In this document: piece by piece, positions 15,671-49,054 of the stretch
Position numbering within the stretch: position 1 is the first letter of the stretch
How the letters are laid out: each line of letters begins with the position of its first letter
Source: Candidatus Uhrbacteria bacterium
GTDB taxonomy: Bacteria; Patescibacteriota; Patescibacteriia; UBA9934; GWF2-40-263
Direction of reading: 5' to 3'
Length of the DNA: 64,000 nucleotides
Assembly (NCBI GenBank): GCA_016844925.1
Contig: JAERTI010000038.1
Span: 2,936-66,935, forward strand
Notes under the pieces: model-generated
The model's database searches: none
What the model was told of the DNA's origin: nothing
Seen by the model: only the letters and a program-made list of their open reading frames with translations
Made by a program: the position numbers and the translations under genes

Positions 15671-17563
15671 TTACTTCTCGTAGGGGTTGTCGTAGTCGTC
15701 GTCACCGACATCGAAGATGGTCGGGACGTTCATGGTCGCCGAGAGCGACATCACGAACGCGGACGAGTCCGTTCCCTCTGCGGAAGTGATCACGTAGAAG
15801 GGGAACTTCTGCGCCTTCACTTGGGTTTCACCCATGAAGTCGACATCGAAGGTTTTGCCCAGACCAGGGAGTTCTTGGATGTGGGGAACCTTCGAGGCGT
15901 CCAGGCCGATGCTCGAACCTTCCGGCATGGGGAAGTTCTTCAAGGCACCTTCAGCGCGAGCGCTGAGGTTCATCGCCTCACCGTTGGTGACGGGGAGGGC
16001 CCTGATGCCGGTCTCATCCGCGGGGATGGTGTAGGTCACCGTCGGTCCGACGGAGATACCGATGCGAACAGGCTTCTCGAGGCTGTCCGCCAGCTCGGCG
16101 ATTTGCAGGGCGGCCTTGATGGCCATGGAGAGTCGCAGGTTCAGACTCATGCCTCGGCACTTGCCCAAGGCGCTCATCCAGACACACACGCAGCCGTCGC
16201 CGGTGAAGTTGTTGTACTTCCCGCCTTCCTTGAGGACGATCTGGTTGATGCCCGTCATGAAAGGTTGCATGAACTGGCCGACCTTGATGGGGTCGTCCAG
16301 CGTTGCCGACCAAGCGGTGAAGCCGACGATGTCCACGGTCATGGCGACCGTTTCTTCATCCGCCACCAGCGGGTTGTAGCCCGCCTGAACCCTTGCAAAG
16401 AACTCTGGGTCCGGGTGAACGGTCCTGGCGATGGCGCGCAAGATGGCGGCCTCGCGGGCCGTCTTTGCGGCCTGCATGGAGCGTCCCGTTGCCTGGCGTT
16501 CCTTCGTCCAGGTCTGCTCGTAGTCGCCCTTGCCGGTCAGGCGCTTGGCGTTGGGGATCAGTGCGGCGAGACGGTCGCCCAGGGTGCGGTTCCACTTGAC
16601 GGTCAGGACCGTGCGCAGGAACGGGGACTGGGCGTCATCGATCTGGTAGATCTCGCCCGCGTGCACGACGGGGAGCTGTTTGAGCTCGCCTTCCCGCACG
16701 ATCTTGTTGGGCGTGAGGATGTCCTTCTCGATGCGGATGCCGCGGACAGAGCCCGAGGGGGTGTCCGAGTAGTCTCCGTTGCAGGAGCCATCCTCGTCGA
16801 TCTTCAGCCAGACCAGTCGTCCGTAGATCTCACCGTCGATGATGAGCGTCTTGCCGTTCCAGTGAACCTCCTTCTCAGGGGCCCACATCTTCAGCAGGGG
16901 GACGATGGGGAGTTCCACGAGCCGGTACTTGACCGTCCCTTCGTCACGTCCGGGCAGGATGCCGGGCATGGCTTGGTTCATCCCGCGGATCAGGTGCAGG
17001 AGCGCCGGAGCGTCCTGCAGACGGTTGACCACCTTGTTCTGGGGGCCGCCAGGGTTGTAGACGCAGACGAGGCGGACTTCGCACTCGCCGATCCGGTAGG
17101 CGTACCAGGACTTGTTGGTGTTCCACGCGGCAGCACCTTCTTGGAGCTTCTGGTAGAGCACCCAGGGGCTGAGCATGAATCCGAGGAATCCGGCAAGCAG
17201 TCGTTCGATGGCGTCGAAGCCGAAGTTGATGTCCGGCGACGCACGGCCGATGAAGGACAGCTTGGAGACGTGCCCCAGCTGCTCGTCGACGATCTTGCTG
17301 ATGAGCTTGTCGTACTGCTCCAGCGTGATGTGGTCACTGTCATCCAGCATGGACGAGACGCTCTTGCCCTTGAGCTTGTCCGGAAGGTTGTCCCAGATCA
17401 CCTGACTCGAGAGCTGGAGCCTCTTGAGACCAACCATCAGAAGTCGAATGTTCCGTGCTGCGTTGATGGAGAGCCACTGCCTGATGGCCTCCATTTCTGC
17501 AACGTCCGTTCTCTTGTACCCGACAGACGTCAGGGTATCGATGCGCTGAGTGCGATCACCCAT
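15671..17563 (-). CDS. class III nucleotidyl (adenylyl/guanylyl-type) cyclase domain protein with a roughly 420-aa uncharacterised N-terminal region; high GC
   Basis: C-terminal catalytic motifs in canonical order: metal-binding Asp in TVDIVGFT, second Asp in NFTGDGCVCVW, VRIGISVGPTVTYTI, transition-state Asn/Arg in NGEAMNLSARAEG. Start placed at the ATG 17561-17563 (reverse strand) with GGAGG 6 nt upstream; the track's TTG start at 17638 is unlikely. Ends in a bidirectional hairpin region (15613-15668). Confidence 0.75.
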   Translation of the reverse strand: MGDRTQRIDTLTSVGYKRTDVAEMEAIRQWLSINAARNIRLLMVGLKRLQLSSQVIWDNLPDKLKGKSVSSMLDDSDHITLEQYDKLISKIVDEQLGHVSKLSFIGRASPDINFGFDAIERLLAGFLGFMLSPWVLYQKLQEGAAAWNTNKSWYAYRIGECEVRLVCVYNPGGPQNKVVNRLQDAPALLHLIRGMNQAMPGILPGRDEGTVKYRLVELPIVPLLKMWAPEKEVHWNGKTLIIDGEIYGRLVWLKIDEDGSCNGDYSDTPSGSVRGIRIEKDILTPNKIVREGELKQLPVVHAGEIYQIDDAQSPFLRTVLTVKWNRTLGDRLAALIPNAKRLTGKGDYEQTWTKERQATGRSMQAAKTAREAAILRAIARTVHPDPEFFARVQAGYNPLVADEETVAMTVDIVGFTAWSATLDDPIKVGQFMQPFMTGINQIVLKEGGKYNNFTGDGCVCVWMSALGKCRGMSLNLRLSMAIKAALQIAELADSLEKPVRIGISVGPTVTYTIPADETGIRALPVTNGEAMNLSARAEGALKNFPMPEGSSIGLDASKVPHIQELPGLGKTFDVDFMGETQVKAQKFPFYVITSAEGTDSSAFVMSLSATMNVPTIFDVGDDDYDNPYEK

Positions 17564-17609
17564 CCGTTGCCTCCTTTGTAAAGGGCACGCCATTGATTGG
17601 CGATGTGGT

Positions 17610-17638
17610 ACAATAGCCGTAATTACGGGGTTTGTCAA
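17610..17638 (-). promoter_or_regulatory. sigma70-like promoter TTGACA-N17-TATTGT upstream of the cyclase gene
   Basis: Read on the minus strand: TTGACA aaccccgtaattacggc TATTGT. Confidence 0.5.
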
Positions 17639-22412: not shown

Positions 22413-24428
22413 GTGAGTTATGCACTGATCACGGGTGGCGGAACGACTGCCCCCGTGGATGTGATTCGCTCCATGGCCAACAGTGCCAAGGGAAGCTTCG
22501 CCATCGAGTTCGCACAGCAGTTTCAGCGTCGCGGTGTTCCTGTGGTGCTGGTGCTTTCCAAGGTGGCCAACGCCTTCAACGGCAGCCGGATCCCCAAGGG
22601 GGTCGAGGTGCTGCTCTACGAGACCTACGACGACTACATCCGCACCATCGCCTGCCTGCTCTCGCGGCGAGGTCAGCCGGCCTATGCGCTCAGCGCGGCG
22701 GCTGTGAGCGACTTCGGGAAGCTCGAGCCGGTGGTGGGCAAGATCAGTTCCGGTGGCAAGCTCACCCTCGAGCTCGATCCGCTCCCCAAGGTACTGGACA
22801 GCTGGCGCCCTCAGATGGGCAAGGCCTGCACGATCGTCGGCTTCAAGCTGATGAGCGCGCAGACATCCACGGTGGCGCAGGTGCTCGCGGCCGCGCGCAA
22901 GCAGAACAAGCGGGCGCGGTTGAACATGACCCTTGCCAACATCAAGGAGGAGATCACCGGTGGGATTCACCCTGTCTGGATGGTCACCCCCGACGGCGGC
23001 ACGGTTCGCATCGACGGCTACGCCGACGAAGTGGCACGGCAGGTGGTGGATCACATCATCCGCATCCACTACACGACGTGGCACCGAAGCGTGCGTCAGG
23101 GCGCTTTCGAAGAAGCGAGAGTGAGTTCGGGGGTGCTGGAGGAGCTTGCTTCGCCGATCATCGAGCTGGCTCAGCGGGTGGGGTTGCTCACGGATGCGTC
23201 CGGGAACATCTCTGTCTGTGACCCTGGGGTCGACGAGACCTTGCTGGTTTCGCCTCGTGGCGTCGACAAGTCGAAGTTGCGTGCCCGGGACATGGTGGTC
23301 GTTCAGCTGGGTGACGCGGGAGATCATGTGGTCCGTTGGTGGGGCAAGCAGGGAACCAAGCCCTCCATCGACACATCGGTGGTGCTGACCCTCAAGGGGC
23401 AGCTCAAGCCGTTCCAGGCCTCTCTGCACTTCCATGATGGCTGGGTTCTCGGCGACATCCCGCGCACGCGCCTGGCGTACCCCTGCGGAACGCTGGAGCA
23501 AGCCGCGGTGATCCGGGAGGCGGCGGCGAGCTTCCCGCGAAGGGCGTACTTCTGTCCCAACAAGCGGGGCCACAGCCTGATGATTGAGCTGCGCGACCAT
23601 GGACACATCCTGTTCGTGCACGAGCTGCGGACGTTGGTTCGTCGGCTTTCTCGCGAGTGGGATGCGGTCCTCAGCGCGTATCGACAGCACCTTGCTGACA
23701 TCGGTCGCGAGGACTTCATGGAGCGCATTCGTGTTCAGCCCATCTGGCTCGTCAACGAGATCATCGGTCTCACGGCAGAACTCGACGGCAACCGCTCCTT
23801 CTACTTGCTGGAGACCGCTCGCGGTAAGGGCCTGGGTGAGCAGCTCATCGAGCTGATCTACAGGCGCGGCCAGCAGGTCGTCGCTCACGACGGCTGCGGT
23901 GTGGCAGACTTCTACCGCCGCCGCGGATTCCGAACGGTCGAGCGCATCGAGGAAGAGGGTCTGACGGTCCTCGAACCGCCGACGCTTCGTCAGGACCTCA
24001 TCGACGCGACGACGGTCACGTTCCACTGCACCACGACGGATCGAGTGCTGCTCATCCAGCGCGGAGAGGGAACGACCTATCCCGAGTGGTGGGCCAACCC
24101 TGGCGGCCGAGATGATGAGGGTGATCGCAACCCTGTCGCCACGGCCGTGCGTGAGGGGCTCGAGGAGATCGGTGTGGACTTCACGGGGCTTCCGGATCCG
24201 GACAGGATCACGGTGCACTACACCGGCTGGGTGAACCCCAAGGCTCCTCAGCAGGAGCGCGGCTACCGGGTCAAGCACCTGGTGGTCCCGGTCGTGATCG
24301 AGTTCGAGCCGCATCCCGACGGCAGTGAGGTCACCGACGCGCAGTGGTCCTCCAAGGACGAGGCGCGCGAACGAAAGATGGGGCCCGCCACGCGCGCGAC
24401 GCTCCGCAAGATCTGGTCGGACTTCTAG
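22413..24428 (+). CDS. four-domain fusion protein: CoaB-like (phosphopantothenate--cysteine ligase-like) / class II aldolase-adducin-like / GNAT-like / NUDIX hydrolase; high GC
   Basis: N-terminus ITGGGTTAPVD...SAKGSFA...DFGKLEPVVGKISSGGKLTLEL follows the CoaB pattern. Middle SGNISVC, LVSPRGV, HFHDGW, RDHGHILF follow the FucA/AraD pattern. Then ARGKGLGEQL (GNAT-like). C-terminal Nudix box GGRDDEGDRNPVATAVREGLEEIGV. GTG start at 22413 with AAGGAG upstream. Confidence 0.7.
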   Translation: MSYALITGGGTTAPVDVIRSMANSAKGSFAIEFAQQFQRRGVPVVLVLSKVANAFNGSRIPKGVEVLLYETYDDYIRTIACLLSRRGQPAYALSAAAVSDFGKLEPVVGKISSGGKLTLELDPLPKVLDSWRPQMGKACTIVGFKLMSAQTSTVAQVLAAARKQNKRARLNMTLANIKEEITGGIHPVWMVTPDGGTVRIDGYADEVARQVVDHIIRIHYTTWHRSVRQGAFEEARVSSGVLEELASPIIELAQRVGLLTDASGNISVCDPGVDETLLVSPRGVDKSKLRARDMVVVQLGDAGDHVVRWWGKQGTKPSIDTSVVLTLKGQLKPFQASLHFHDGWVLGDIPRTRLAYPCGTLEQAAVIREAAASFPRRAYFCPNKRGHSLMIELRDHGHILFVHELRTLVRRLSREWDAVLSAYRQHLADIGREDFMERIRVQPIWLVNEIIGLTAELDGNRSFYLLETARGKGLGEQLIELIYRRGQQVVAHDGCGVADFYRRRGFRTVERIEEEGLTVLEPPTLRQDLIDATTVTFHCTTTDRVLLIQRGEGTTYPEWWANPGGRDDEGDRNPVATAVREGLEEIGVDFTGLPDPDRITVHYTGWVNPKAPQQERGYRVKHLVVPVVIEFEPHPDGSEVTDAQWSSKDEARERKMGPATRATLRKIWSDF

Positions 24429-24461: not shown

Positions 24462-24528
24462 GATTGATGTTGGTTGACATGAGGGTGTTCGTGTATTATG
24501 AAGAGTGAGCATCCAACCTGGAGGGATC

Positions 24529-25350
24529 ATGCACATGCGTTCTTTGCTCTTGCCTTTCTGCCTCTTCGCTCTGGTGAGCTGCACGCCGCCGGACGCCGAG
24601 GATCCGTTCGTGAAGTCGGACGACAGCGACAACACCGGCACCGTCGAAGACTCCGACGACGGAGATGGCGGTGGTGACACGGACGACGACGACAGCGCCG
24701 AGCCGGTCGACGAAGACGGTGACGGGTACAGCCCCGATCTGGACGACCAGGACTGCGACGACAGCGACGACACGATCTACCCGGGCGCGCCCGAGGTCTG
24801 CGGCGATGGCATCGACCAGGACTGCGACGGTTCGGATCTCGAGTGCGAAGAGAAGACCGGTGAGTGGAGCGCCATCGTGTGCGAGATGGAGCACAGCTGG
24901 TTCCGCGACGACGAGATCGAGTGGGAGATCGAGTGGTACGAGGATCGTGGTGGTGACGACCCCCTCGAGGTGGGCGTCGCCTTCAACTACCTCATGGAGG
25001 AAGACCAGCTCATCCAGGCCGACGCCTACACGGTGACCTGGCCCACGCACTACGAGAGCCTCGAGTCCTACCCCGTCTACGACGGCGAGGTCGACTACGA
25101 CGGTCAGCCCCTCAACTTCACCAGCTTCCGCATGGAGTGGAGCGACCGGAGCGAGCCCCAGCCGGGCCTCTACGACTTCTTCGACGCCGCGGGCAACATG
25201 ACCCTCAGCCCCGGAGACGTCGTCTCCTTCGCCATGTGGTCCTGGAGCGACTACGACGGCGAGCCCGTCTACCTCCACTGGACCATCAACGAGTACGGCA
25301 TGGAGGACTACTACGGGACCTGCTACCTGACCTGGTCCACCGAGGAGTAG
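24529..25350 (+). CDS. Asp-rich lipoprotein with a MopE-type (Myxococcus-type) cysteine-rich putative metal-binding motif; high GC
   Basis: Signal plus lipobox MRSLLLPFCLFALVSC. Motif DEDGDGYSPDLDDQDCDDSDDTIYPGAPEVCGDGIDQDCDGSD. GGAGG 4 nt upstream of the ATG at 24529. Confidence 0.65.
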   Translation: MHMRSLLLPFCLFALVSCTPPDAEDPFVKSDDSDNTGTVEDSDDGDGGGDTDDDDSAEPVDEDGDGYSPDLDDQDCDDSDDTIYPGAPEVCGDGIDQDCDGSDLECEEKTGEWSAIVCEMEHSWFRDDEIEWEIEWYEDRGGDDPLEVGVAFNYLMEEDQLIQADAYTVTWPTHYESLESYPVYDGEVDYDGQPLNFTSFRMEWSDRSEPQPGLYDFFDAAGNMTLSPGDVVSFAMWSWSDYDGEPVYLHWTINEYGMEDYYGTCYLTWSTEE

Positions 25351-26523: not shown

Positions 26524-28359
26524 CTAAGTGGCGCCAGCTTTATCTTGCTTGATATACTCAAGCTCTTGATGCAACATCCTTTCAAACTCATTTGCTTTTC
26601 CAAGTTCGCGCATAATCTCCCATATCGGTTCATCTTTGATTCCCTCAACACCTTTTTCTTCTAAACGTCCTGTCTGGCTGAGTGTGTAGATAAGAAACTC
26701 TGTGCTTGAAAGGAGGATATCTGCAGCCTGTTGTACGGCAGTCTCTTGCTCACCATCGCGATTTTCTAGTATTGCGGTAGATGTTTCAGGGTTTAGTGCA
26801 ATTTGATTGATTGTTGTGAAGTATGTGTGGTACCAGACTTTCTCTCGCCATGATTCAGATTCGTCCTGCAGAAGATTTGCAAATCGAAGGACGGCATTTG
26901 CATATTCTTCCACTTCGGATACTTGCCATTCATGTGAGTGGTTAAGCATATCACCTCCTCCCGCAAGGTCCATCAGGACCTGGCCGGCAGCAAAAAATAG
27001 CGCTTCATCTTCGGTGCCTGGGTGCTGTTCTATAAATGTGACAAGCGTGCGTACTTGCGACAAACTTCCTTCAAATGTCTTTAAGGCTTCCAGAACTTGC
27101 TCAGCAGACTGAACGGCATCTTTGCCGAAACGCTCTGTAAGAAATGTGGGGATGTGATGATACTGTTTTGGTTCTAGCGCTATGAGTGATGCGTGTACAA
27201 AGGTGTGTACCTCTGGTCCAAGGAGGGTGCCAAAATGCGTCGCTTTGTCCATTTGGTTCAGGATCCCTTGGATTCGGGTTTCTAGTCCATTTCGGAGTCT
27301 TGTTACATGTCGGTTCAGTTCAGGTGTTGCAAGTGTTCCTTCGAATTGCTTGAATAAATTCAAGAGTTTTCCAACTTCATTTCCGGCAGTGGACATTGTG
27401 GCAATGGACCACATTGGACGTGCGGCATTTCGGTTGCTTAGACTGCTATATACTTCTCCGGTGTATCGGTGTGTTGTTCGGCTTTCAGCAGTTCGGGTAT
27501 GTGCAAGAAGCTCGTCTTTCAAGCCAAAAAGAAGGTCGTCAACAGATGTGGACTCCAGCCAAAACTCATTTGCTGCAATAGTTCCCATGAGCTCATCAGA
27601 TCCGGTGTCGTCACCTTCGGCTTCTTTAAGTCTCTCCCTTGTCGATTCCGCTAAGATCATCTGGATTCGTGTGGTGGAATAGGTGTAATCAGCTCCTCGC
27701 AAATAGGATCCATCCGTAATGGTATGAACCAGTTCGTGTTCTCGTGTGCGCATGGTTTCATACTCGTCTCTTCGAAGGATGATGTTCACTGGTGATCTGT
27801 AAATATGCCGTCCAAGTGCTCGTAGTCTTCCGTTAGCGAACAGGGCTAATGGTTTGTCTGCAATGATATCTACCGAATAGGCACCAAATCGTAACTCTGC
27901 TGTTGGGTCATCTGGACCTACATAGCGCTCAAGCAGTTTGCGTTGGAGTTCTGGGCTTCTTCGAATATTTTCAACATCATGCGCTCGATGTTGAAGATTT
28001 TCTAAAACTTGCAGAACCTGCCCCATGAGCAATACACCCTTGTCATTCTCAAGAGTTCTTATTTCATTTAATAAATCAAGTTTTTTCAATGAGGATCCTT
28101 TCTTTCCAAGTTCTATGAGCTCTTGTTTTAGTTCTTGTAGCTGATCGTGTCTCTCAAGAGTCTCATCATCAACCTTCTGAAAGAAGGTGATTGTCCGTTG
28201 CTCAAGATCATTTAATGTGTCTTCTAGTGATACATTTTCTACAACCTCATACAGGCCCTCAAATGCCGCGGCACAGAGCTCGATGTTACGGACAGCCTCT
28301 CTTTTCAGCTTGTCTCTTTGCTCTAGGCGTGCTGATCGCCGTTCTGAGAATCGGATCAT
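26524..28359 (-). CDS. hypothetical protein (611 aa) with an HExxH motif (REHELVHT)
   Basis: Backbone GC. Single HELVH motif; otherwise unrecognised. A minus-strand hairpin at about 26478-26500 (ccacctgacctcagtcgggtgg) lies past the stop. Confidence 0.55.
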   Translation of the reverse strand: MIRFSERRSARLEQRDKLKREAVRNIELCAAAFEGLYEVVENVSLEDTLNDLEQRTITFFQKVDDETLERHDQLQELKQELIELGKKGSSLKKLDLLNEIRTLENDKGVLLMGQVLQVLENLQHRAHDVENIRRSPELQRKLLERYVGPDDPTAELRFGAYSVDIIADKPLALFANGRLRALGRHIYRSPVNIILRRDEYETMRTREHELVHTITDGSYLRGADYTYSTTRIQMILAESTRERLKEAEGDDTGSDELMGTIAANEFWLESTSVDDLLFGLKDELLAHTRTAESRTTHRYTGEVYSSLSNRNAARPMWSIATMSTAGNEVGKLLNLFKQFEGTLATPELNRHVTRLRNGLETRIQGILNQMDKATHFGTLLGPEVHTFVHASLIALEPKQYHHIPTFLTERFGKDAVQSAEQVLEALKTFEGSLSQVRTLVTFIEQHPGTEDEALFFAAGQVLMDLAGGGDMLNHSHEWQVSEVEEYANAVLRFANLLQDESESWREKVWYHTYFTTINQIALNPETSTAILENRDGEQETAVQQAADILLSSTEFLIYTLSQTGRLEEKGVEGIKDEPIWEIMRELGKANEFERMLHQELEYIKQDKAGAT

Positions 28360-28804
28360 ATCATGGAGGTTATTTGTTTAGGTTAGGGTATCGTATTTTG
28401 TTGCACGTGTCAGTGTATGGGAGAAAAGTTAAGGTGACCTCTGGGGACGTTGTTTATTCTGGAAGTTGCTTATAATGCAATTGAAAATGTTTTTTTGAAA
28501 CCTGCAAATCTTGGGTTGTAAATCTCAAGAGCTGTTTCACCATTAAGATCTATAAGGGCAACGGTCTCGTTATAGATGGTTTGTCTGATGTTGAATTTGA
28601 GGGGTCGACAATGAGGAGTGTATTTATATCAAAGCACGACGCTCAGTAGCAACATGGTCAGAAGTACGAGTAAAGATTCAAGGACGATCAGTTGGAAAAA
28701 AGAGTTTTCTGATGCTGCATTTGCTTTGGGTGGGTGGAAGTTGGAGTAATCATGGCATTTCAACACATATTAAGGTTCGAACGTCCAACGCTAGCCCCTG
28801 CCAA

Positions 28805-28836
28805 AAACCCCCGAGCTGTATCTCGGGGGTTTTTGT
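28805..28836 (+). terminator. orphan rho-independent terminator with no obvious upstream + strand gene
   Basis: cccccgagctgtatctcgggggtttttg. Confidence 0.7.
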
Positions 28837-28851
28837 TATTGGAGACAGATA

Positions 28852-28880
28852 TTGACAAACGCAACTCATTTGCGTTAGTT
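28852..28880 (+). promoter_or_regulatory. promoter TTGACA-N18-TAGTTT carrying the perfect palindromic operator AACGCAA-N5-TTGCGTT (28858-28876)
   Basis: The inverted repeat fills the spacer and overlaps the -10 box. It lies about 95 nt upstream of the His-rich COG0523 gene. Confidence 0.55.
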
Positions 28881-28972
28881 TATGAATCGCGGTGCTGGAT
28901 TTTCTCATACCTGCAGAGCGAGAGGATTTTGCAGGTGTGGGAAGAGCTCACGCCGGATACAGGGAGGCAACG

Positions 28973-30526
28973 TTGACTCAAGTCATTCTTCTACTCGGAG
29001 CTGCTGGGTGTGGCAAGACCACGCTCATCGGCAGCATCGTTCGCAACTTCGGAGGCGATCGATCGATCGCGGTCGTCTTCAACGACGACGGGGATCCCGA
29101 GGCCACCGATCTGCCCGACGATCTCGGGCGGTTCGCCGACATCACGTCCATGACAGCAGGGTGCTTCGGATGCACCGATTCGACGGCCTTCCTGGAGTGC
29201 ATTCAGGCTCTCCAGGAGCAGGTGCCGGCACTCGACGTCATTCTGGTGGAGCCCGTGGGTTTCACCGATGCACAAGAGATGCTCGACACGCTGGCCGAGA
29301 TCCATGTGATCCCGACGGTGGTCGCACTGGTGGATGCGGCGCATCACGCACACAACCTGAAGCTGGGTACGACCGAAGGTCACGTTTTGGCCGCCGACTG
29401 CACGCTGGTCACCAAGATCGACGCTGCGGACACGAGCATGAACGTGGTCTCCTGGTCCCAGGAGCGCTGTTCGGATGTCCGGGTCTTCCGGGCTGACGAC
29501 GTCTTCGACCCGGCGACCATCAGGTTGCCAGCGCATGCGCATCATCACGACTGCGGCCACGATCACGTGCACGGCGAATCGTGCGATCACCACCATCATC
29601 ATGACGATGGTCATCATGACCATCACCACAGCCACGGACATTCCCACGGACATGTCTGCACCTTCCATGCGCGACTCGCGTCGGAGGTGAATGTCGACAC
29701 GGTCAGGGGAGTGCTCGAAGATCACCCACTGGTGCTCCGAGCCAAGGGGCTCGCTTCCAGCGGACGCTTCAGCATGGTCCAGGGGAGCTGGGACATCTCG
29801 GAGGATAGTCCGGGAGTCAGCTTCATTACCTTCTACACCGCGCCCGGCGACAGTGTCGCTGGTGAGGCGTGCCTCGAGGCCTTGCGACCGCACTACGCGG
29901 TTGGGTCCGGAGGATTGAAGGGGACGATGGCCGCCATGCGCGGAGATACCGACGTGGAGGTGGTCGAGTACCAGCTCGATGTCTGTCGCCGCAAGCCGCT
30001 GACCTTCTCCGCAGGGCATCCGGTGCCCAGTCCGGAGTGGCTCGAGGTGCTGATCCTGCTGCGACATCGGCCGGGAGTCCCTGAAGACCTGAAGCTCGCG
30101 TGTGAGGAGGTGTATGTCAATCACTGCCTCGCGTGCGCGCGTTGGTACATGGACAATCCTGGTCGCGATGGTGAACCTGTTGCCACGGCGCGCATCCACG
30201 ACATCGCCGTCGGTCTGGGGTGGTTCGTGAACAAGAACGCTGAGAGTCTGCGTCCGGAGGTGGTTCGGGAAGCCGAGCGCATCCCGGTTGCCGGCTGGCT
30301 GCGAACCTCCCTCCTGGCCCGTACGCGGATCAGTCCCAACCGGGACAAGGAGCTGGTCATCGCAGAGGACGTCGCTGTCAGTGCCGCCTGGGCACTGCGC
30401 GTCGGTCAGACTCCCCAGGACCTCAAGAGCGCCTGGGATCACAACCGGCGTCTGGCTGAGGCCTCTGGCGACGCCACGGCTGTCGAGGCCTGGGTCGCAT
30501 CCTGGGAGACGGTCGCCTCCGCGTGA
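28973..30526 (+). CDS. divergent COG0523/G3E-family P-loop GTPase (CobW/ZigA-like metallochaperone) with a His-rich tract and a long C-terminal extension; high GC
   Basis: Walker A GAAGCGKTT at residues 9-17. The family's usual CxCC becomes GCFGC. His-rich stretch HAHHHDCGHDHVHGESCDHHHHHDDGHHDHHHSHGHSHGH. TTG start at 28973 with GGAGG 5 nt upstream; the in-frame ATG at 28892 lies in low-GC sequence with no RBS. Confidence 0.7.
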   Translation: MTQVILLLGAAGCGKTTLIGSIVRNFGGDRSIAVVFNDDGDPEATDLPDDLGRFADITSMTAGCFGCTDSTAFLECIQALQEQVPALDVILVEPVGFTDAQEMLDTLAEIHVIPTVVALVDAAHHAHNLKLGTTEGHVLAADCTLVTKIDAADTSMNVVSWSQERCSDVRVFRADDVFDPATIRLPAHAHHHDCGHDHVHGESCDHHHHHDDGHHDHHHSHGHSHGHVCTFHARLASEVNVDTVRGVLEDHPLVLRAKGLASSGRFSMVQGSWDISEDSPGVSFITFYTAPGDSVAGEACLEALRPHYAVGSGGLKGTMAAMRGDTDVEVVEYQLDVCRRKPLTFSAGHPVPSPEWLEVLILLRHRPGVPEDLKLACEEVYVNHCLACARWYMDNPGRDGEPVATARIHDIAVGLGWFVNKNAESLRPEVVREAERIPVAGWLRTSLLARTRISPNRDKELVIAEDVAVSAAWALRVGQTPQDLKSAWDHNRRLAEASGDATAVEAWVASWETVASA

Positions 30527-30615
30527 ACGCACTCGCGTTCTACAACCTTCTGTCCGGCCACCTGCTTTGCGACGGCAGAGTGGGTGGCCGAGACACTTTT
30601 TAAAACATTCGTCTT

Positions 30616-31575
30616 ATGAAAATTGCATTCGTTGGAAAGGGTGGTTCTGGTAAAAGCACCATGTCATCTCTTTTCATCAACTACCTACAAAAAAATGGCC
30701 GTTCGGTTATTGCTGTAGATGCCGATATTAACGTGCATCTTCCGACGCTTTTGGGATGCCAGATTGAATCTTGTAACGCCCTATCGCTACCAGCGAATAG
30801 CCTGAAGATAAAAGCGTATCTCAAGGGATCAAATCCACGCATTAAACAAGCTGCTTCTATTGTAAAGTCTACGCCTCCTGGCGAAGGTTCCTGTTTTTTA
30901 ACGCACCAAGCTGACAATCCGATTCTGTCTTCATTTTCATCACCGATTGGCAACGCTGGTTTTCTGCTCCACGTGGGGACCTACGACAAGGATGGGATTG
31001 GCGAAAGTTGTTACCACACAAACTTAGCAATCTTTGAGTCGCTTCTTTCCCATACACTTCTCAAAGATGATGAGTGGCTTGTAGCTGACATGGTTGCGGG
31101 TACCGATGCGTTTGCCGGAACACTGCACGCGCAATTCGATGCGATCGTTCTTGTTGTTGAGCCAACACCGGAGGGGGTGAGTGTCTTCAAGCAGTATATA
31201 GAATTAGCAGAGGTGGCAGGTGTTCAAGAGTATATTTATGCCCTCGGGAATAAGGTGGATGATGATGAGGACATTTCTTATTTGAAAGAGCACATTGGGG
31301 ACAAGCTTATTGGTTCTCTTAACCGCCAGGTTTATCTCAAGCGATCACGACAGTCAGGTGAGGCGATTGATATCGAGAAGATTGATGGGATTGAGGAGGT
31401 GTTTGATTTGATTGCAGAAGTCACACGAAGGAATAAAGAAACAGAGACACATCGAATTGCTATTTTGCATGAATTGCATCGCAAGCACGCCCAGGCTGAC
31501 TACATCGTGGCACGCCACGGTGACCTGACAGAACAAATCGATCCAGATTTTTCCTTGCATGATGTGAAGGTATGA
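30616..31575 (+). CDS. MinD/ParA-superfamily P-loop ATPase, CooC-like (metal-centre maturation ATPase family)
   Basis: Deviant Walker A MKIAFVGKGGSGKST. Stop overlaps the next start (ATGA). Confidence 0.65.
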   Translation: MKIAFVGKGGSGKSTMSSLFINYLQKNGRSVIAVDADINVHLPTLLGCQIESCNALSLPANSLKIKAYLKGSNPRIKQAASIVKSTPPGEGSCFLTHQADNPILSSFSSPIGNAGFLLHVGTYDKDGIGESCYHTNLAIFESLLSHTLLKDDEWLVADMVAGTDAFAGTLHAQFDAIVLVVEPTPEGVSVFKQYIELAEVAGVQEYIYALGNKVDDDEDISYLKEHIGDKLIGSLNRQVYLKRSRQSGEAIDIEKIDGIEEVFDLIAEVTRRNKETETHRIAILHELHRKHAQADYIVARHGDLTEQIDPDFSLHDVKV

Positions 31576-32969
31576 GTTTCAAGCTGACGCCTCGTATTCA
31601 TGAGGAGGTTGCAAACTTCTTGAGTGATAAGAAGCGTCTCTTTGAATTGACTCAGCAGCACGGATCACCTCTCAACATGCTGTTTCCCGCTCTCATGCTT
31701 CGAAACATTTCAGGGTTTCAATCGGTGCTGAAGAACAATCTTGATCGTAGTCAGATGTACTACGCACACAAGCCAAACAAATCTGCCGAGCTTCTTCATC
31801 CCATCAAAGAAGCGGGTGTGGGTGTTGATGTTGCTTCTTTAAGTGAGCTGAAGAATGCGCTGGAGGTTGGTCTCGCGCCTGAAGCTATTGAGGCAACAGG
31901 ACCCAAAAATGATCAGTTCATTCAACGAGGGGTAGAGGTTGGCATTACCTTCAATGTTGATAGTCACACGGAACTCAAGCTGGTTCTTGAGGAAAGTGCA
32001 CGCCAACGAAAGCAAACACGTGTGTATCTACGGCTAAATGGTTTTTCAGCGAAGCACACACAGGTTCGTTGGGGGGAATCTCGGTTTGGGATTCTAGTGA
32101 AGGATGTACACGCATCATTGCGATTGCTTGTAGATCACAAGGAATCGCTTAAGCTAGTCGGTTTCTCTTTTCATGTAAACGCGGGTGGTAAAAAAGAACG
32201 ATTGATTGCTATTGAAAATGCTATTGAGTGTACTCTCGAAGCTCGCAAGTTAGGTCTCAATCCTCAGTTTATGAATATTGGAGGAGGATTTCCTATTACG
32301 TATCTTGCCGATCAGGAGCAGTGGCATGACTACATATCAGCTCTCAAGCAGTCGGTGCTGGGTCGAGGTCAACGTCTCTCGTGGAATGACTCAGGGCTTG
32401 GATTTAAGAATCGTGGTGGGGCCCTTGAGGGCGGTCCAAATTTCGGAGAATTCTACCGTGAGCTTGTGAAAGAACATGAGTTAGAAGATTTGCTGAACGC
32501 GCATCTGCCTACTTACAAACAGCCCGTCAAAACGATTCTTAATGAGATGCTTATTGGGCTCGCTATAGAACCAGGGCGCGCGCTTCTTGATCAGGTGGGT
32601 GTGACGATGACTCAAGTCCTAGACGTGAAAGAAACGTCTTCGGGAGATCAGGTTGTTATTGTGGACATGAATCGCTCCAATATTAATGCGATTGACATGG
32701 AGTTCATGTGCGATCCTGTGCTCATCACTCAGAGCGAAAAATGCGATGAGCCCTTCTCGGGATTCATTGCGGGAAACCTTTGTCTTCACAGTGATTTGAT
32801 CTACCGACACAAAACATTCTTTTCACGGAAACCCTCACGGGGAGAGGTGTTCGTGTTTATCAATACCGGTGCGTACAACATGAATTTCGTTGAAAGTGCC
32901 ACACTTGGCCAACCCATTGCTGAAACAGTCATCATAAAAGACGGTGTCGTATGCTCTACAGAACGATAA
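31572..32969 (+). CDS. PLP-dependent decarboxylase, Orn/DAP/Arg decarboxylase family (alanine-racemase-like fold III)
   Basis: PLP-Lys motif YYAHKPNK plus the GGGF motif in NIGGGFPITY. Confidence 0.7.
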   Translation: MSFKLTPRIHEEVANFLSDKKRLFELTQQHGSPLNMLFPALMLRNISGFQSVLKNNLDRSQMYYAHKPNKSAELLHPIKEAGVGVDVASLSELKNALEVGLAPEAIEATGPKNDQFIQRGVEVGITFNVDSHTELKLVLEESARQRKQTRVYLRLNGFSAKHTQVRWGESRFGILVKDVHASLRLLVDHKESLKLVGFSFHVNAGGKKERLIAIENAIECTLEARKLGLNPQFMNIGGGFPITYLADQEQWHDYISALKQSVLGRGQRLSWNDSGLGFKNRGGALEGGPNFGEFYRELVKEHELEDLLNAHLPTYKQPVKTILNEMLIGLAIEPGRALLDQVGVTMTQVLDVKETSSGDQVVIVDMNRSNINAIDMEFMCDPVLITQSEKCDEPFSGFIAGNLCLHSDLIYRHKTFFSRKPSRGEVFVFINTGAYNMNFVESATLGQPIAETVIIKDGVVCSTER

Positions 32970-34255
32970 CGGATCTCATCGGAAATACACCGCTTCTTGA
33001 AATTGATTCTGCTGTCCACGGTATTGATAACGTGAATCTCTTTGCAAAACTTGAATATTATAATCCCTTTGGATCTGTGAAGGATCGGGTTGTTTGGGGG
33101 ATTCTGAAGGATGATATCCAAACGATTAAACAAAATGATCAAAAGATTGTTGAGATGTCCAGTGGGAACACTGCCAAAGCACTGCAGGGCATTGCTTCTG
33201 CTCATGGGATTGCGTTTAAAACGATCACGAATCGGATCAAGGTGCCTGAGGTCAAAGATATTTTGAACATCATGGGAACAGAGATTCAGGAGCTTCCTGG
33301 AAAGAGTGATTGTCATGACCCTAATGACCCAAATGATCCTCTTGTGTATGTTCATGAAGAAATTCGCAAGCATCCGGGTAAGGTCTACTTTACGTCACAG
33401 TACAGCAATAAAAAGAACATAGATGCCCACTACAGGACAACCGGTGAAGAGCTACTGAACGACGTTGATCGTATCGATTTCTTTTTTGGTGGGGTTGGTA
33501 CATCAGGTTCGACACGCGGTACAGCAATGCGTATCCAGAAACGCGATACAGAACTGAAGACCGTTGGCGTTGTCGCTTCAAAGGGGGGATATATTCCAGG
33601 TATTCGCAACCGCGATGAGGTGCTTGAAGTTGGGTTATTTGACCCTTCGTTCTATACGGAGATATTGGAAGTGAAACCGGAAGAGGCTGTTCATGGTGAA
33701 ATTGAACTTATTCAACGATCTGGGGTGATGTGTGGCCCGACAAGCGGTGCTACCTATGAAGCTGTCAAAGCTTACTTTCAGAAGCACCCAGCGAAAAAAC
33801 CTGTGAACGTTGTCTTCATCGTGTGTGATCGTATGGAATGGTATGCGAGTTACATCGCGAAATATCGACCAGATCTTTTGGGGCTAGACAAGCCTGTTTG
33901 TGCTGCTGAAAAACTTACGGAATATGATATTCTTGATGTAGAAGAGTTGTCCCCACAAGAGGCAAAAAAGAAGTTGACCGAAGGGGCGCTTCTTATCGAT
34001 AGCAGAAGCCATGTATCCTTTAAATCGATTCACGTTGAGGGGTCTCTAAATATTCCAGAAGAAACACTGTTTGAGTGGCTTGAAAACGACGTAAAATTCT
34101 GCCCAGATAAGCCGATCATTTTTGTGTGTCCGTTCGGAAGAAGGAGCAAGCGAGCCGCGGCGATGATGAAGAGAACGGGATACGAAGCTTATTCATTGAG
34201 GGGAGGTATTCTTGCTTGGCAAGATGAGGGGCTTCCTATACACAACCATCTTTGA
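32951..34255 (+). CDS. cysteine synthase/CBS-family PLP enzyme fused to a C-terminal rhodanese domain
   Basis: PLP-Lys motif FGSVKDRV. C-terminal rhodanese active-site loop FVCPFGRRSKRAA. Overlaps the upstream gene by 19 nt. Confidence 0.7.
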   Translation: MLYRTITDLIGNTPLLEIDSAVHGIDNVNLFAKLEYYNPFGSVKDRVVWGILKDDIQTIKQNDQKIVEMSSGNTAKALQGIASAHGIAFKTITNRIKVPEVKDILNIMGTEIQELPGKSDCHDPNDPNDPLVYVHEEIRKHPGKVYFTSQYSNKKNIDAHYRTTGEELLNDVDRIDFFFGGVGTSGSTRGTAMRIQKRDTELKTVGVVASKGGYIPGIRNRDEVLEVGLFDPSFYTEILEVKPEEAVHGEIELIQRSGVMCGPTSGATYEAVKAYFQKHPAKKPVNVVFIVCDRMEWYASYIAKYRPDLLGLDKPVCAAEKLTEYDILDVEELSPQEAKKKLTEGALLIDSRSHVSFKSIHVEGSLNIPEETLFEWLENDVKFCPDKPIIFVCPFGRRSKRAAAMMKRTGYEAYSLRGGILAWQDEGLPIHNHL

Positions 34256-34426
34256 GAGTATGTGCATGGTCTGCGGTGATCCTGTTCAGATACAACAAGA
34301 GGTAACGATTGTCGCAAACATGATGCAGGTGTTTGGGTCAATCCCGATCATTGCTATTTTGTCATGGCAAGCCAAGAATTTACTTCAGGCAATCAAAGAA
34401 TTTAAAGCTGGTGTGAGCAAACGATT

Positions 34427-34846
34427 ATGCAGAAAGAAGAAATAGCAAAACTGCTTAGGCAAGAGGGGATGCGTGCAACAAAAAATCGTATTCAAGTGCT
34501 TCTGTTTGTCGAGCAACAAAAGCATCCGGTTGGCATTGAGGTGCTTAGAAAAACGTTTCCCAGCATTAATGAAGTCACCTTGTACCGCATGGCATCTGAT
34601 TTTGTTGAAAAAGGTATTTGGAACGCGTGCGATTTAGGTCATGGCCACATTGATTATGAATCAGCTAATCGACCACATCACCATCATGCCGTTTGTGAAA
34701 CATGCGGAACAATTGAGGAGGTTTACGGTTGCCAAGATGAATGCCAACTCACAAAGGCGTTTCAGCGTAATGCAAAGAAGTTTCAAATATTACATACGCC
34801 AAACGCAGCTATTTTCGGTACCTGCACTGATTGTGCCAAAGTTTGA
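34427..34846 (+). CDS. Fur-family metalloregulator (Fur/Zur/PerR)
   Basis: 139 aa. Winged-helix N-terminus, then HGHIDYE, RPHHHHAVCETCG and CTDC metal-site motifs. Confidence 0.75.
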   Translation: MQKEEIAKLLRQEGMRATKNRIQVLLFVEQQKHPVGIEVLRKTFPSINEVTLYRMASDFVEKGIWNACDLGHGHIDYESANRPHHHHAVCETCGTIEEVYGCQDECQLTKAFQRNAKKFQILHTPNAAIFGTCTDCAKV

Positions 34847-35037: not shown

Positions 35038-35925
35038 TTGAAGCTTCAATTCGTCCTGGGGGCTCATGACCCTGAAATGGATTGTATTGAATCGATTCTC
35101 CAGAGTTTGTCCGTCCCGTGTGTGTACGCCATGAGAGGTGCTCGACGAGTGCTCCCTCACCAGGCGTACCAGGTTGATGGGCTCTCAAAGCCGCTCCCCA
35201 GCGACCGTCCGACCTGCTGGGTAGAGTGCCTTCCGGAGACGAGTGAGTCAGCGCTCCTTCCAGGCGTCACGGCATATGCCGACCATCACGGCGAGCATCC
35301 CTGCGCCAGTGCGCCACCGGAACGTTTCTTTGAAGCGAGCAGTCTCGGGCAGGTCATTGGGATCCTGCGGGACACGTCTGCCATCGGTGAGGACTGGGGC
35401 ATCACTGAAGCACTGTTGTTCGAGGCGGCAAATGATCACTGCAAGTGGTCTGCCGCTTCAGGTGAGTGTCCGGGCGTTGACCCTGAGCGATTCATCGTTT
35501 GGGTGACAGGCCGGTACGCTGAATTCAACAATTGGGACCCCGTTGAATTTGCCGAGGATGTGGCGCGGGCCACGAACTTGATTGAAAAGGCTCCAAGGGT
35601 CCCATGGCTCCCTGGAGATATTGCCGACTTGTCTGCGGTTCCGCTCCCGGAACAACCGTGTGAGAGCGGTCCCTACATCCAGGGGCTCCACTACGCGACG
35701 CACATTGCGTGCATGAAGGCACGTAGGGCCTGCGTCGTCACGGCGATGCGCAAGGCGGATGGGTGTTCGGGCCTGCAGCTCAATGGCACAGGAGCGGAAA
35801 CGCCTGCTGGCAAGAGGCCCGTCGAAGTGTTCCTGAAGTATTGGGAGAAACGAGGCTTCGCGGCTCCCGATCTCTATGGAAACTCTGACCGCGGATACGC
35901 GGGGGTGTGGTTTACCTGCACTTAG
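35038..35925 (+). CDS. putative metal-dependent hydrolase (DHH-phosphoesterase-like or LmbE/PIG-L-like motifs); high GC
   Basis: FVLGAHDPEMDC near the N-terminus and YADHHGEHP about 85 aa later. No DHHA1 GGGH motif. TTG start with GGAGG upstream. Confidence 0.45.
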   Translation: MKLQFVLGAHDPEMDCIESILQSLSVPCVYAMRGARRVLPHQAYQVDGLSKPLPSDRPTCWVECLPETSESALLPGVTAYADHHGEHPCASAPPERFFEASSLGQVIGILRDTSAIGEDWGITEALLFEAANDHCKWSAASGECPGVDPERFIVWVTGRYAEFNNWDPVEFAEDVARATNLIEKAPRVPWLPGDIADLSAVPLPEQPCESGPYIQGLHYATHIACMKARRACVVTAMRKADGCSGLQLNGTGAETPAGKRPVEVFLKYWEKRGFAAPDLYGNSDRGYAGVWFTCT

Positions 35926-36907: not shown

Positions 36908-37204
36908 AAAATCACTAAACCACAGTATGTAGAGCTGTGGTTTTATGTTTGCTGTACAAGTTTTTAGTGGCGGAATACGTTGACAAAAGCGTTAAAAAAT
37001 GGTAGTCTCCTTTCCTGGCTTACAATCTGGAACCCACTCTTTCTTCCGTGGAGGAGTGGATACCGATGGGTACTAGAATCCCCAAAAAGCATTCAGAAAC
37101 ACGCATTAGCGGTTCTCCCTCTGTGAGGGATTTAGGACAATTAGTGCGTGTTTTTGGTCACGGAGACCATTGAATGCGATCAAGCCTTCAGTCCAAGAGA
37201 CAAC

Positions 37205-37765
37205 ATGAAGCGTTTTCTGATCCCCATGACCCTTATCCTTACCTCCTGCTTCGAGGGGGGTGCGAGTTTCCCCCTGGGGAAGAGTGGCTACTGCATGGGT
37301 GTTGGTCTGGGAACGGGAGAGGGGAAGCTCGAGTGGCTCGACATCGAGCTCAACGAGTGCATCCCGGAGGGATACTACGGCTGCGACCAGATCGACGTGA
37401 ACTACGATGGGGCCTTCGGTGGAGCGAGTTGCCAGGGGGCGTACGACTTCCCGGATTCCTACACCATGAGCTTCGTCACGTCTCGAGAGGTGACCCTCGC
37501 TGTGGTCTCGTGGGAGACGGACATGATGGACAGTTCTTTCAACGAGATCCTGTACCCTGTCTGGGTGGGTGATTCGAACTACGAGTTCGTCATGCACTTC
37601 CCGAACCCTGGGTACGGATCCGACGGTGACCAGATCGACTACAGCATCGACGTCTACATCGGCAACACGCTGATCGCTGACCCGGTGGTCAGCGCGACGC
37701 TCGACGGCGTCCCCGAAGACGTCGACTACGACGCACGAGACCGCGAGTACAGCTCGAGGTGGTAA
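37205..37765 (+). CDS. lipoprotein, hypothetical; high GC
   Basis: ATG at 37205 gives the lipobox MKRFLIPMTLILTSC. About 170-nt leader containing a 35-codon uORF. Confidence 0.55.
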   Translation: MKRFLIPMTLILTSCFEGGASFPLGKSGYCMGVGLGTGEGKLEWLDIELNECIPEGYYGCDQIDVNYDGAFGGASCQGAYDFPDSYTMSFVTSREVTLAVVSWETDMMDSSFNEILYPVWVGDSNYEFVMHFPNPGYGSDGDQIDYSIDVYIGNTLIADPVVSATLDGVPEDVDYDARDREYSSRW

Positions 37766-46817: not shown

Positions 46818-47273
46818 CTAGGTGGTCCTCACAACGGTGATGGGTGAGGGGTCGAGGGTGTCCAGCTCCAAAGGGTGGGGCCCTTCCGTGAAGATCACGG
46901 ACAATCCCTTCTTCTCTCTCGAACTAACGAGGGAGAAGAGATCGCCGTTGCTGAGAAAGTGCTTCTGTCCTTTTGCCAGGCGCGAACCCTTGCGCCAGAC
47001 GCCGTTTTTGGACAGGTCGGCGATGACCCACATGTTTAAGGCAGCTGGCCTAATCACCATGTGGAGCCTGCTGAGTTTTCCCATGAGTTCCGGGTGGGAC
47101 CAGGGCTCACGAGCGAACTGGAGATGGGCACGATGCATTCCGTCGTGCATGTTCGGGGCCGGGTAGTGATCCCTGCCCACTGATACACCACTGTCCGGCA
47201 GGTCGTTTTCCAGGAACGCTTGTCCCTTCCAACACCATACGAGTTTAGGCACCACGAGTCCTTTCGTCAGCAA
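46818..47273 (-). CDS. FHA-domain protein (C-terminal FHA-like), intermediate GC
   Basis: VSVGRDHYPAPNMHDGMHRAHLQF...VIADLSKNGVWRKGSRL...NGDLFSL follows the FHA core pattern. The stop codon sits inside the hairpin cctagccacgtgttggctagg, which is followed by T6 on the minus strand. Confidence 0.5.
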   Translation of the reverse strand: MLTKGLVVPKLVWCWKGQAFLENDLPDSGVSVGRDHYPAPNMHDGMHRAHLQFAREPWSHPELMGKLSRLHMVIRPAALNMWVIADLSKNGVWRKGSRLAKGQKHFLSNGDLFSLVSSREKKGLSVIFTEGPHPLELDTLDPSPITVVRTT

Positions 47274-48929: not shown

Positions 48930-49054
48930 GGTTCCTCCTTCATGCGTGTGCATGCGCCGTATCTGTACCATATGTTACGGCCCTGTCAATGGATTTGTCG
49001 TATCATGCGAAGTTTTCCTCTTGAGATTTCGCCATTTTCTGGCATAGTAGGGCC

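Follow-up and report, generated by a model that had tools for sequence, protein, structure and literature searches.

A divergent COG0523-like GTPase behind a putative Fur-family operator in a Candidatus Uhrbacteria contig

A 64,000-nucleotide stretch of contig JAERTI010000038.1 from a Candidatus Uhrbacteria bacterium (hereafter the window) contains the gene for a long GTPase of 517 amino acids, preceded by a promoter whose spacer is filled by a perfect palindrome. On balance, the promoter and gene appear to form a Fur-family-repressed, metal-starvation-inducible unit of this Parcubacteria-group (candidate phyla radiation, CPR) bacterium, encoding a COG0523-like metallochaperone. The placement in this group is supported by the BipA protein, which shares a 90%-identity cluster with a protein attributed to a Parcubacteria-group MAG. 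The evidence for the unit is chiefly comparative: the palindrome recurs in the same promoter arrangement in related loci, where Fur-family genes are common, and the protein aligns with the CobW/YjiA type of G3E GTPase.

The promoter palindrome and its recurrence in related loci

The -35 hexamer TTGACA and the -10 hexamer TAGTTT are separated by 18 nt, and the palindrome AACGCAACTCATTTGCGTT occupies the whole spacer together with the first base of the -10 element. These elements are those given in an earlier reading of the letters (the sequence-only reading), which described AACGCAA-CTCAT-TTGCGTT lying across the spacer and -10 box as a repressor-operator geometry. The core of the operator is ACGCAA-N5-TTGCGT, a 6-5-6 arrangement; alternatively, it can be read as AACGCAAcT-C-AtTTGCGTT, a 9-1-9 palindrome with one mismatch. 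The repeat is perfect, as the earlier reading had stressed, but it is not exceptional in itself, since 20 perfect 7-N5-7 inverted repeats occur in the window versus 3.95 in shuffled sequence, many of them terminators. A 7-bp palindrome alone is thus unremarkable here, and the case rests on position and conservation. A scan for further AACGCAA-N5-TTGCGTT sites, which the sequence-only reading had suggested, found the operator to be the sole match in the window, the runner-up having two mismatches and lying inside coding DNA; like boxes were found in the promoters of related loci. Immediately upstream, an intrinsic terminator with the stem CCCCCGAG/CTCGGGGG looks bidirectional and as though it shields the promoter from upstream transcription. 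It was not listed by a simple terminator scan; an equivalent hairpin and T-run stand ahead of the homologous promoters in locus L001.

Only nine relatives of the window GTPase were found in a collection of 5.8 billion proteins. Their contigs, together with those of three more distant members, added 11 independent loci to the window, which makes 12. The unit of -35 hexamer, box and -10 hexamer is seen again in L001 (twice), L002, L006, L013 and L015. In L001 the two sites lie at positions 628 and 2359 and match the window box at 16/18 and 17/18 positions, respectively. The box is immediately preceded by TTGACA in L006 and at both L001 sites, and by TTGACT in L013, and the -10 counterparts are TAGTTT and TAGTCT (L001), TAATAA (L006) and TAATTT (L013). 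One L015 box, AACGCAACTCATTTGCATC, equals the window site at 17/19 positions, spacer included, despite GTPase identity of only 22%. A related form, xTGCAA-N5-TTGCAx, occurs in the promoters of Fur genes and of nicotianamine-synthase-like (NAS) genes in L005, L006, L007, L010, L011 and L013; examples are TTGCAA-GAGAC-TTGCAA (L010) and ATGCAA-TATTA-TTGCAA (L005). Several sites also keep an inner AAT-N-ATT, as in n-1-n Fur boxes. Because both the box and the promoter geometry are kept across related loci, the repressor-operator reading holds, and the predicted mechanism of regulation is well supported on comparative grounds.

Architecture of the long GTPase, its gene and its transcript

The G-domain matches Pfam cobW (PF02492) over residues 4-164, scoring 75.5 bits where 20.7 is the cut-off. 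In the PDB, E. coli YjiA ranks first both by sequence (2e-8) and by fold (6e-9), and Foldseek aligned YjiA, HypB, UreG and MeaB each with probability 1.0. Family HMM, fold and an invariant Walker A P-loop thus all place the protein in the G3E superfamily (CobW/HypB/UreG/MeaB), and the description of a divergent COG0523-like GTPase with a G3E Walker A made from the sequence alone stands. Motif conservation was judged on the nine close relatives and on an alignment of 31 diverse members. The Walker B glycine is invariant, VEPxGF is found in the close relatives, and the G4 position is [T/S]K in the close relatives and TKID in the window protein. ND[D/E]G is invariant in the family where NEFGE is expected.

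In COG0523 proteins, CxCC is the family-defining invariant high-affinity zinc site, and RxKG is an arginine finger acting in cis, as in ZigA and MigC (PMC13001444); the two motifs are given as the functional cores of COG0523 (PMC13001444, PMC11672702). The CxCC motif is absent from the long GTPase. As had been noticed at the outset, its place is taken by CFGC, within a GCFGC that is present in 9/9 close relatives; CF[G/T/S]C is found in the diverse members sampled, 31 of them aligned, with Gly, Thr or Ser and never Cys at the third position. A 41-residue linker follows, predicted to be disordered (predicted local distance difference test [pLDDT] <50 over residues 186-226) and comparable to the flexible linker of ∼20-40 residues that separates the G-domain from the C-terminal domain (CTD) in COG0523. 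It is the His/Asp tract of 40 residues named in the sequence-only reading and has, besides its 21 His and 6 Asp, two Cys; Cys-containing His-rich linkers recur in the wider family.

The remainder of the protein had been described as a single C-terminal extension of about 290 residues. It is better divided into a CobW_C-like α/β domain containing RAKG and a separate helical domain of 209 residues. The CobW_C HMM (PF07683) gave no match in the long GTPase at E ≤ 0.01, and the best NCBIfam score was 48 bits against a cut-off of 180. In an AlphaFold model of the whole protein (pLDDT 75.6), the CTD has the order β-α-β4-α and RAKG (residues 256-259) lies inside a predicted strand (residues 254-262); the YjiA alignment spans both domains over 362 columns. 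Lys258 is invariant, and Arg256 and Gly259 are invariant in the nine close relatives and ≥90% conserved in the wider family. Judged from these alignments, the long GTPase keeps the arginine-finger motif and breaks the CxCC rule.

Modelled alone, the helical domain gave a ten-helix bundle or solenoid (pLDDT 89.3; predicted template modelling score 0.84). It had no match in Pfam or in plasmids or phages, and no PDB fold matched it better than E 0.05; what appeared was limited to 14-3-3 proteins and designed helical repeats. When its profile was run against 1.84 billion representatives, 51 matched, mostly proteins of 500-560 residues in which the domain is C-terminal behind the same GTPase. Because the domain is without invariant Cys or His, a docking role is likelier than a metal site, and it probably provides a docking surface for a client. 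The long-GTPase family is very rare. A word-indexed profile search with the 31 diverse members returned the same nine proteins only, and neither GTDB species representatives nor JGI metagenome contigs gave a match to the family alignment or to back-translated GHPVPxPEWxEL, the alignment scans probably being swamped by P-loop matches.

The second COG0523 gene that had been reported in the window, at 52119-53069, is present, but its metal motif is not the canonical CxCC: the YjiA-like paralog reads NGAICCAV (AxCC), with Ala for the first Cys. The AICC is shared by its orthologue in L001 (6768-7721; 75% identity). Both COG0523-type proteins of the window therefore deviate from CxCC. No box was found upstream of the paralog.

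Translation of the long GTPase most probably begins at TTG 28973, which follows a Shine-Dalgarno (SD) sequence and is favoured by homologues beginning MTQ or MAR. The public protein record P0001 (529 aa) uses GTG 28937, within the 3' arm of a leader hairpin; this codon with its SD-like loop was rejected both as the true start and as that of a leader peptide, being out of frame in L007, L009 and L011. The start of the longest open reading frame (ORF), GTG 28892, is less well supported than TTG 28973, for which the SD and the homologue N-termini speak. An antisense ORF (28991-30532) was dismissed as a by-product of high GC, the sense strand having the Pfam match and the homologues.

Between promoter and gene, the transcript is predicted to fold into a long hairpin (-41 kcal/mol, z score -3.6) in which the real SD and start codon are unpaired. 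The hairpin core, with the loop AGnGGAGGAUU, could be aligned with the sequences just ahead of the long GTPase gene in L005, L006, L007, L009, L011 and L012. Of the cells in this alignment 95.8% are paired; both sides have changed in six pairs, and none of 500 shuffles did as well. The covariance model built from it (R1) gave a single match in each locus, immediately before the long GTPase gene, with a sense score about twice that of the antisense. The conserved G-U pairs speak for an element of RNA and not of DNA. L001, L013 and L016 have other strong hairpins at the same position. Rfam 15 gave no family for the leader; in the window only tRNAs reached gathering scores, and sub-threshold matches at E ≤ 10 fell nearly all on the upstream terminator. 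The leader hairpin is most likely a 5' stabiliser or processing barrier that leaves the real ribosome-binding site (RBS) unoccluded. Gram-positive bacteria have 5' stem-loop or SD-like mRNA stabilisers, such as STAB-SD of cryIIIA, whose SD-like sequence is unused for initiation. The window leader resembles them in being a stable hairpin near the 5' end with an unused SD-like sequence and a free RBS; it differs in carrying that sequence in the loop, in being operon-internal in most loci, and in belonging to no Rfam family.

Downstream of the gene, a second strong structure (-46.7 kcal/mol, z score -6.0) probably acts either as a leaky terminator or to stabilise the mRNA at its 3' end. At this point L001 (2271-2410) has a terminator and a second box-bearing promoter, which serves a CbiA-like operon, whereas window positions 30525-30615 hold only a remnant-like palindrome and the 20-bp hairpin with T5. 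The window promoter is identical to the L001 CbiA-operon promoter at 33/35 positions. This pattern suggests that, between the two lineages, either a promoter was lost or the GTPase gene moved, with promoter and gene order reshuffled.

The GTPase gene has a GC content of 0.63, and 0.75 at third codon positions (GC3); its neighbours are at ∼0.45. Insertion by recent horizontal transfer was rejected as a sufficient cause, because the GC3 excess recurs in nearly every related locus examined (L006, 0.81 vs 0.44; L013, 0.82 vs 0.65; none in L010) and because the gene is as diverged as its neighbours, the GTPase being ∼75% identical to that of L001 and the flanking proteins 73-87%. For the same reasons the picture of an island within a backbone, drawn from the window alone, proved too simple. 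The window is instead a gene-by-gene GC mosaic in which most genes have GC3 of 0.45-0.58 and scattered single genes, several with Pfam domains, have 0.72-0.90. Two of the GC3-rich genes are unusual in themselves: 24505-25350, with the highest GC3 in the window (0.90), encodes a probable lipoprotein with a MopE-type putative copper-binding motif (PF11617), and 22413-24428 (671-aa ORF; GC3 0.82) encodes an unusual fusion of DFP (CoaBC-type), class II aldolase, GNAT and NUDIX domains.

Gene context, the candidate repressor and the metal sensed

The Fur-family gene that the sequence-only reading had placed about 4 kb downstream was found 3.9 kb downstream (PF01475). A Fur-family gene adjoins or belongs to the same gene string in 9/12 independent loci, the window included (among the others L001, L005, L007, L009, L010, L011 and L013). 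Because Fur genes adjoin most loci and boxes precede Fur-containing operons, we infer that the 34427-34846 protein is the obvious candidate repressor of the box. The CxxC...CxxC of its structural Cys4 site is invariant in the six Fur orthologues aligned from related loci. No NCBIfam model reached its cut-off for the regulator, the best being PerR with 47.7 bits against 180, and a PDB profile search with the six orthologues gave E-values that differed by no more than a few orders of magnitude among the Fur, PerR, Zur (2o03, 3mwm) and Nur structures. In the alignment to 3eyy, the Nur nickel ligands His70 and His72 correspond to Ala and Asp, and position 81 holds the Glu of Fur instead of a His.

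Between the GTPase and Fur genes lie those for a CbiA/MinD-like ATPase, a LysA-like pyridoxal phosphate (PLP) decarboxylase and a CysK/SbnA-like PALP enzyme fused to rhodanese. The same order, followed by a Fur gene, is found in L001 (73-87% identity). The products of 30616-34255 all score below the cut-offs of the nearest NCBIfam equivalogs; a chelator or thiol compound is a possible product of the pathway. A small ORF read by eye at 34261-34426 (MCMVCGDPVQ..., ∼60 aa, with a hydrophobic stretch) separates the PALP-rhodanese and Fur genes, and the ORFs flanking the cluster, 26524-28359(-) (611 aa) and 35038-35925 (295 aa), had no Pfam or NCBIfam match.

Eight other loci (L005, L006, L007, L009, L010, L011, L013 and L016), whose GTPases are 28-55% identical to that of the window, instead contain a NAS-like gene, in most cases with a short CxCC cobW gene (301 aa) behind it, then a gene for a protein of 140-195 aa (except in L010) and the long GTPase gene. 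Neither a NAS-like gene nor the 140-195-aa partner was found in the window by tblastn. The partner (L005 9460-9939, L007 3251-3838, L012 29-448, L013 3592-4014, L016 7454-7933) has no precomputed Pfam hit and shares the motif ADEMTFxxPxIWxxYKxLAYxGTxxEIxTW...HCxxxGxICxKRxAFL...EWxxHEF. In L007 (5428-5784) and L008 (2415-2771), a gene for a MerC-family membrane protein, a possible metal transporter with GC3 of 0.72, overlaps the 3' end of the GTPase gene. In L015 only a ZigA-like COG0523 gene adjoins. What recurs is a small-molecule amine/carboxylate pathway, of chelator type, together with NTPase metallochaperones under one Fur-family box.

From these associations we propose the following scheme. 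When metal is plentiful, a dimer of the 34427-34846 protein would sit on the palindrome, and because the palindrome fills the -35/-10 spacer, RNA polymerase would be excluded while the repressor is bound. When metal is scarce, the apo-repressor would leave and the unit would be transcribed, with the leader hairpin at the start of the mRNA acting as a stabiliser or processing barrier. Read-through of the 3' hairpin would probably extend into the CbiA-like, decarboxylase, PALP-rhodanese and Fur genes, in which case the repressor would be autoregulated. In the GTPase, the G-domain would offer a two-thiolate CFGC site, the His/Cys-rich linker may buffer metal, the RAKG arginine finger of the CobW_C-like domain may trigger GTP hydrolysis in cis, and the family-specific helical domain may dock the client. 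Because the family is tied to NAS-like genes and to other COG0523 paralogs, the job of the GTPase is most likely metal allocation under limitation, linked to a small-molecule chelator pathway.

Zinc would be the likeliest metal, and the 'zinc-type' regulation first suggested for the cluster is a reasonable guess given what the regulon contains, namely COG0523 genes, CxCC ZigA-like ones among them, and chelator-type biosynthesis. Zur regulons typically include COG0523 genes and metallophore clusters, and the palindromic Zur boxes, of 7-1-7 or 9-1-9 form, overlap the -35/-10 region (PMC6103462). In the DNA available, the box precedes ZigA-like COG0523, long GTPase, NAS and Fur genes; no boxed transporter or ribosomal paralog was seen.

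Several observations weigh against the proposed scheme, the metal included. The half-sites and 6-5-6 geometry agree with the box of the nickel regulator Nur rather than with published Zur boxes, and the regulator sequence is no closer to any one of Fur, PerR, Zur and Nur than to the others. The missing CxCC means that metal affinity and selectivity may differ from those of zinc chaperones. A pattern scan found no second good box in the 64-kb window, so that no local regulon can be read, and the promoter at 28852-28881, with its weak -10, was missed by a consensus promoter scan. The strong hairpin and T-run after the GTPase gene make co-transcription with the downstream genes uncertain. Finally, L016 has the NAS-GTPase module with neither a Fur gene nor a box.

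The box geometry is also the starting point for a different assignment, in which a Nur-like sensor on the 6-5-6 box would respond to nickel or cobalt, the GTPase would handle these metals as HypB, UreG and CobW do, and the CbiA/CooC-like ATPase would serve as another metal-insertion NTPase. Nickel and cobalt are among the metals carried by nicotianamine-type opine metallophores, and the neighbouring CbiA-family P-loop ATPase is weakly similar to NifH/CfbC/ApbC-type proteins. The Nur box of Streptomyces coelicolor is tTGCaa-N5-ttGCAA, likewise 6-5-6, and its regulator binds nickel through His70, His72 and His126 (PMC2691836). The statement of the sequence-only reading that the operator does not resemble the Zur and Fur boxes familiar to it is not supported: the GCAA/TTGC half-sites and the 6-5-6 spacing match the Nur box, with L010 exact and L005, L006 and L013 close, and a Zur-like 9-1-9 can be read as well. 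A two-Cys site in place of CxCC and a linker that is 51% His would also suit nickel or cobalt. This assignment is nevertheless unlikely, because Ala and Asp replace His70 and His72 and a Glu, as in Fur, stands at position 81, because the same box stands ahead of CxCC ZigA-like COG0523 genes, which are typical zinc-regulon members, and because no nickel or cobalt enzyme or transporter was seen in any locus.

The constant company of biosynthetic genes raises the question of whether the GTPase is instead an accessory of the small-molecule pathway (the NAS-like enzyme or the PLP-enzyme pair), loading or stripping the chelator or activating an enzyme at the expense of GTP, with the C-terminal domain docking the enzyme or the 140-195-aa partner. 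NAS, small protein and long GTPase genes do adjoin in L005, L006, L007, L009, L011, L013 and L016, as they do without the small protein in L010; decarboxylase and SbnA/CysK-like partners are present in the window and L001; and the C-domain, which is without invariant Cys or His, is almost confined to the long-GTPase architecture. We regard such a role as distinctly doubtful: the gene in L015 has only a ZigA-like COG0523 gene beside it, none of the loci has a linked gene for chelator export or import, and adjacency would fit a shared regulon equally well. No COG0523 protein is known to us to act on a small-molecule ligand.

It is highly improbable that the palindrome is a chance repeat or another regulator's site, with the promoter constitutive or absent, as the 20 perfect repeats in the window and the weak, uncalled -10 might suggest, because the same sequence recurs in the same -35/-10 register in independent metagenomic loci upstream of three metal-related gene types, co-occurs with Fur genes in most loci, and lies upstream of the likely transcription start, where it cannot act as an RNA hairpin.

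Features of the window and boxes of related loci (coordinates are window positions unless a locus is named)
Feature	Position	Strand	Remarks
Intrinsic terminator	28803-28834	+	A5, stem CCCCCGAG/CTCGGGGG, T5; read from sequence
-35 hexamer TTGACA	28852-28857	+	read from sequence
Operator palindrome AACGCAACTCATTTGCGTT	28858-28876	unstranded	arms AACGCAA-CTCAT-TTGCGTT; putative Fur-family repressor site
-10 hexamer TAGTTT	28876-28881	+	weak: 3/6, TAnnnT retained; 18-nt spacer to -35
5'-leader RNA hairpin	28886-28958	+	core 28901-28945: 17 bp, loop GAGCGAGAGGAUUU with SD-like GAGG/GGAGG
SD GGGAGG; start codon TTG	28962-28967; 28973-28975	+	homologue N-termini align with MTQV
Long GTPase, 517 aa	28973-30526	+	TTG start
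G3E/COG0523-type G-domain	28973-29530	+	Pfam cobW PF02492, YjiA match
G-domain motifs	28997-29023; 29081-29092; 29159-29173; 29246-29263; 29411-29422	+	P-loop GAAGCGKTT; NDDG; GCFGC; VEPVGF; TKID
His/Cys-rich linker, 41 aa (residues 187-227)	29531-29653	+	21 His, 6 Asp, 2 Cys; CGHxHxHGxxC
CobW_C-like α/β domain	29654-29896	+	RAKG 29738-29749 is the RxKG arginine-finger motif
All-α domain, 209 aa, ten helices	29897-30523	+	family-specific, C-terminal to the CobW_C-like domain
3' structures	30525-30601	+	palindrome GAACGC-ACTC-GCGTTC 30525-30540; 20-bp hairpin 30551-30595; T5 30597-30601
CbiA/MinD-like ATPase	30616-31575	+	Pfam, NCBIfam
LysA-like PLP decarboxylase	31572-32969	+	Pfam, NCBIfam
CysK/SbnA-like PALP enzyme fused to rhodanese	32951-34255	+	Pfam, NCBIfam
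Fur-family regulator, 139 aa	34427-34846	+	HHHHxxCxxC ... CxxC; PF01475, 52 bits; candidate repressor of box
YjiA-like COG0523 paralog, 316 aa	52119-53069	+	cobW and CobW_C (PF07683, 71.6 bits); RYKG
High-GC3 genes, examples	15671-17638(-), 22413-24428, 24505-25350, 28973-30526, 37148-37765, 46818-47273(-), 47961-48971(-), 61161-61775(-)		
Box, L001/L002 (closest; GTPase ∼75% identical)			TTGACA-AATGCGAATGATTTGCGTT-AGTCTT, ahead of GTPase
Box, L001/L002, second unit			TATTGACAAACGCAAGTAATTTGCGTTAGTTTATG, ahead of CbiA-like operon
Box, L001/L002, third	L002 position 317		AACGCGAATGATTTGCATT, ahead of CxCC ZigA-like COG0523
Boxes, L015 (GTPase 22% identical)	L015 positions 1022 and 1062		AACGCAACTCGTTTGCATT and AACGCAACTCATTTGCATC, ahead of ZigA-like gene, long GTPase next
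Boxes, L006 and L013			TTGAC[A/T]-(A)ATGCAA-N5-TTGC[A/G]A-TAAT.., ahead of NAS or Fur-NAS operons
Boxes, L005, L007, L009, L010, L011			one or two each, in divergent Fur/NAS promoter

Relation to known systems and significance

COG0523 GTPases are the least understood of the metallochaperones, and current models treat CxCC as invariant. With the characterized members (E. coli YjiA, A. baumannii ZigA and MigC, B. subtilis ZagA/YciC and eukaryotic ZNG1) the window GTPase shares the G3E G-domain, a variable His-rich linker and a CTD with RxKG, and its predicted control by a Fur-family box parallels that of Zur-regulated yciC and zigA (PMC6103462). The window family differs from them in having CF[G/T/S]C for CxCC and NDDG for ENEFGE, a CTD that the CobW_C HMM does not detect, and the extra 209-aa domain. 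HypB and UreG have the same G3E fold. Some HypB proteins carry His-rich stretches. Both are without a CobW_C-type CTD and form G-domain dimers (PMC13001444), whereas the window GTPase has a CTD with RxKG.

At the level of regulation, the likeness to Zur regulons lies in a palindrome over the core promoter, in COG0523 paralogs with a chelator-type cluster, and in a regulator gene within the regulated string (PMC6103462). The half-site differs, being GCAA/TTGC here and not AT-rich as in published Zur boxes, and no curated model assigns the window regulator to Zur. The Nur box, in turn, shares the 6-5-6 geometry with the window site (aCGCAA-N5-TTGCGt), and the L010, L005, L006 and L013 sites are near-perfect to its consensus; the differences are the absence of His70/His72, the inner AAT-N-ATT of several sites, and a regulon of COG0523 and NAS genes rather than sodF or nik.

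A bolder reading, to which we attach limited credence, is that these proteins constitute a new G3E/COG0523 branch of Parcubacteria-related and other uncultivated bacteria, with a CFxC site and a new helical domain, that would use GTP to drive metal transfer between a nicotianamine-type or PLP-derived chelator and proteins and that would have its own leader RNA and GC3 enrichment. If this were true, the dedicated leader and the gene-specific GC3 enrichment would hint at selection on the mRNA.

The long GTPase offers a natural test of the role of CxCC in metal selectivity and GTPase gating, as it keeps the arginine-finger CTD and two of the three thiolates and has gained a docking-type domain. 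Its steady linkage to NAS-like genes, which is rare for COG0523, offers a concrete client hypothesis. The combination of a Nur-type 6-5-6 box with a regulator that is without the Nur nickel site is informative about the link between operator geometry and metal specificity in the Fur family. The conserved box, finally, provides a handle for reconstructing metal regulons in CPR bacteria, where regulation is essentially unexplored.

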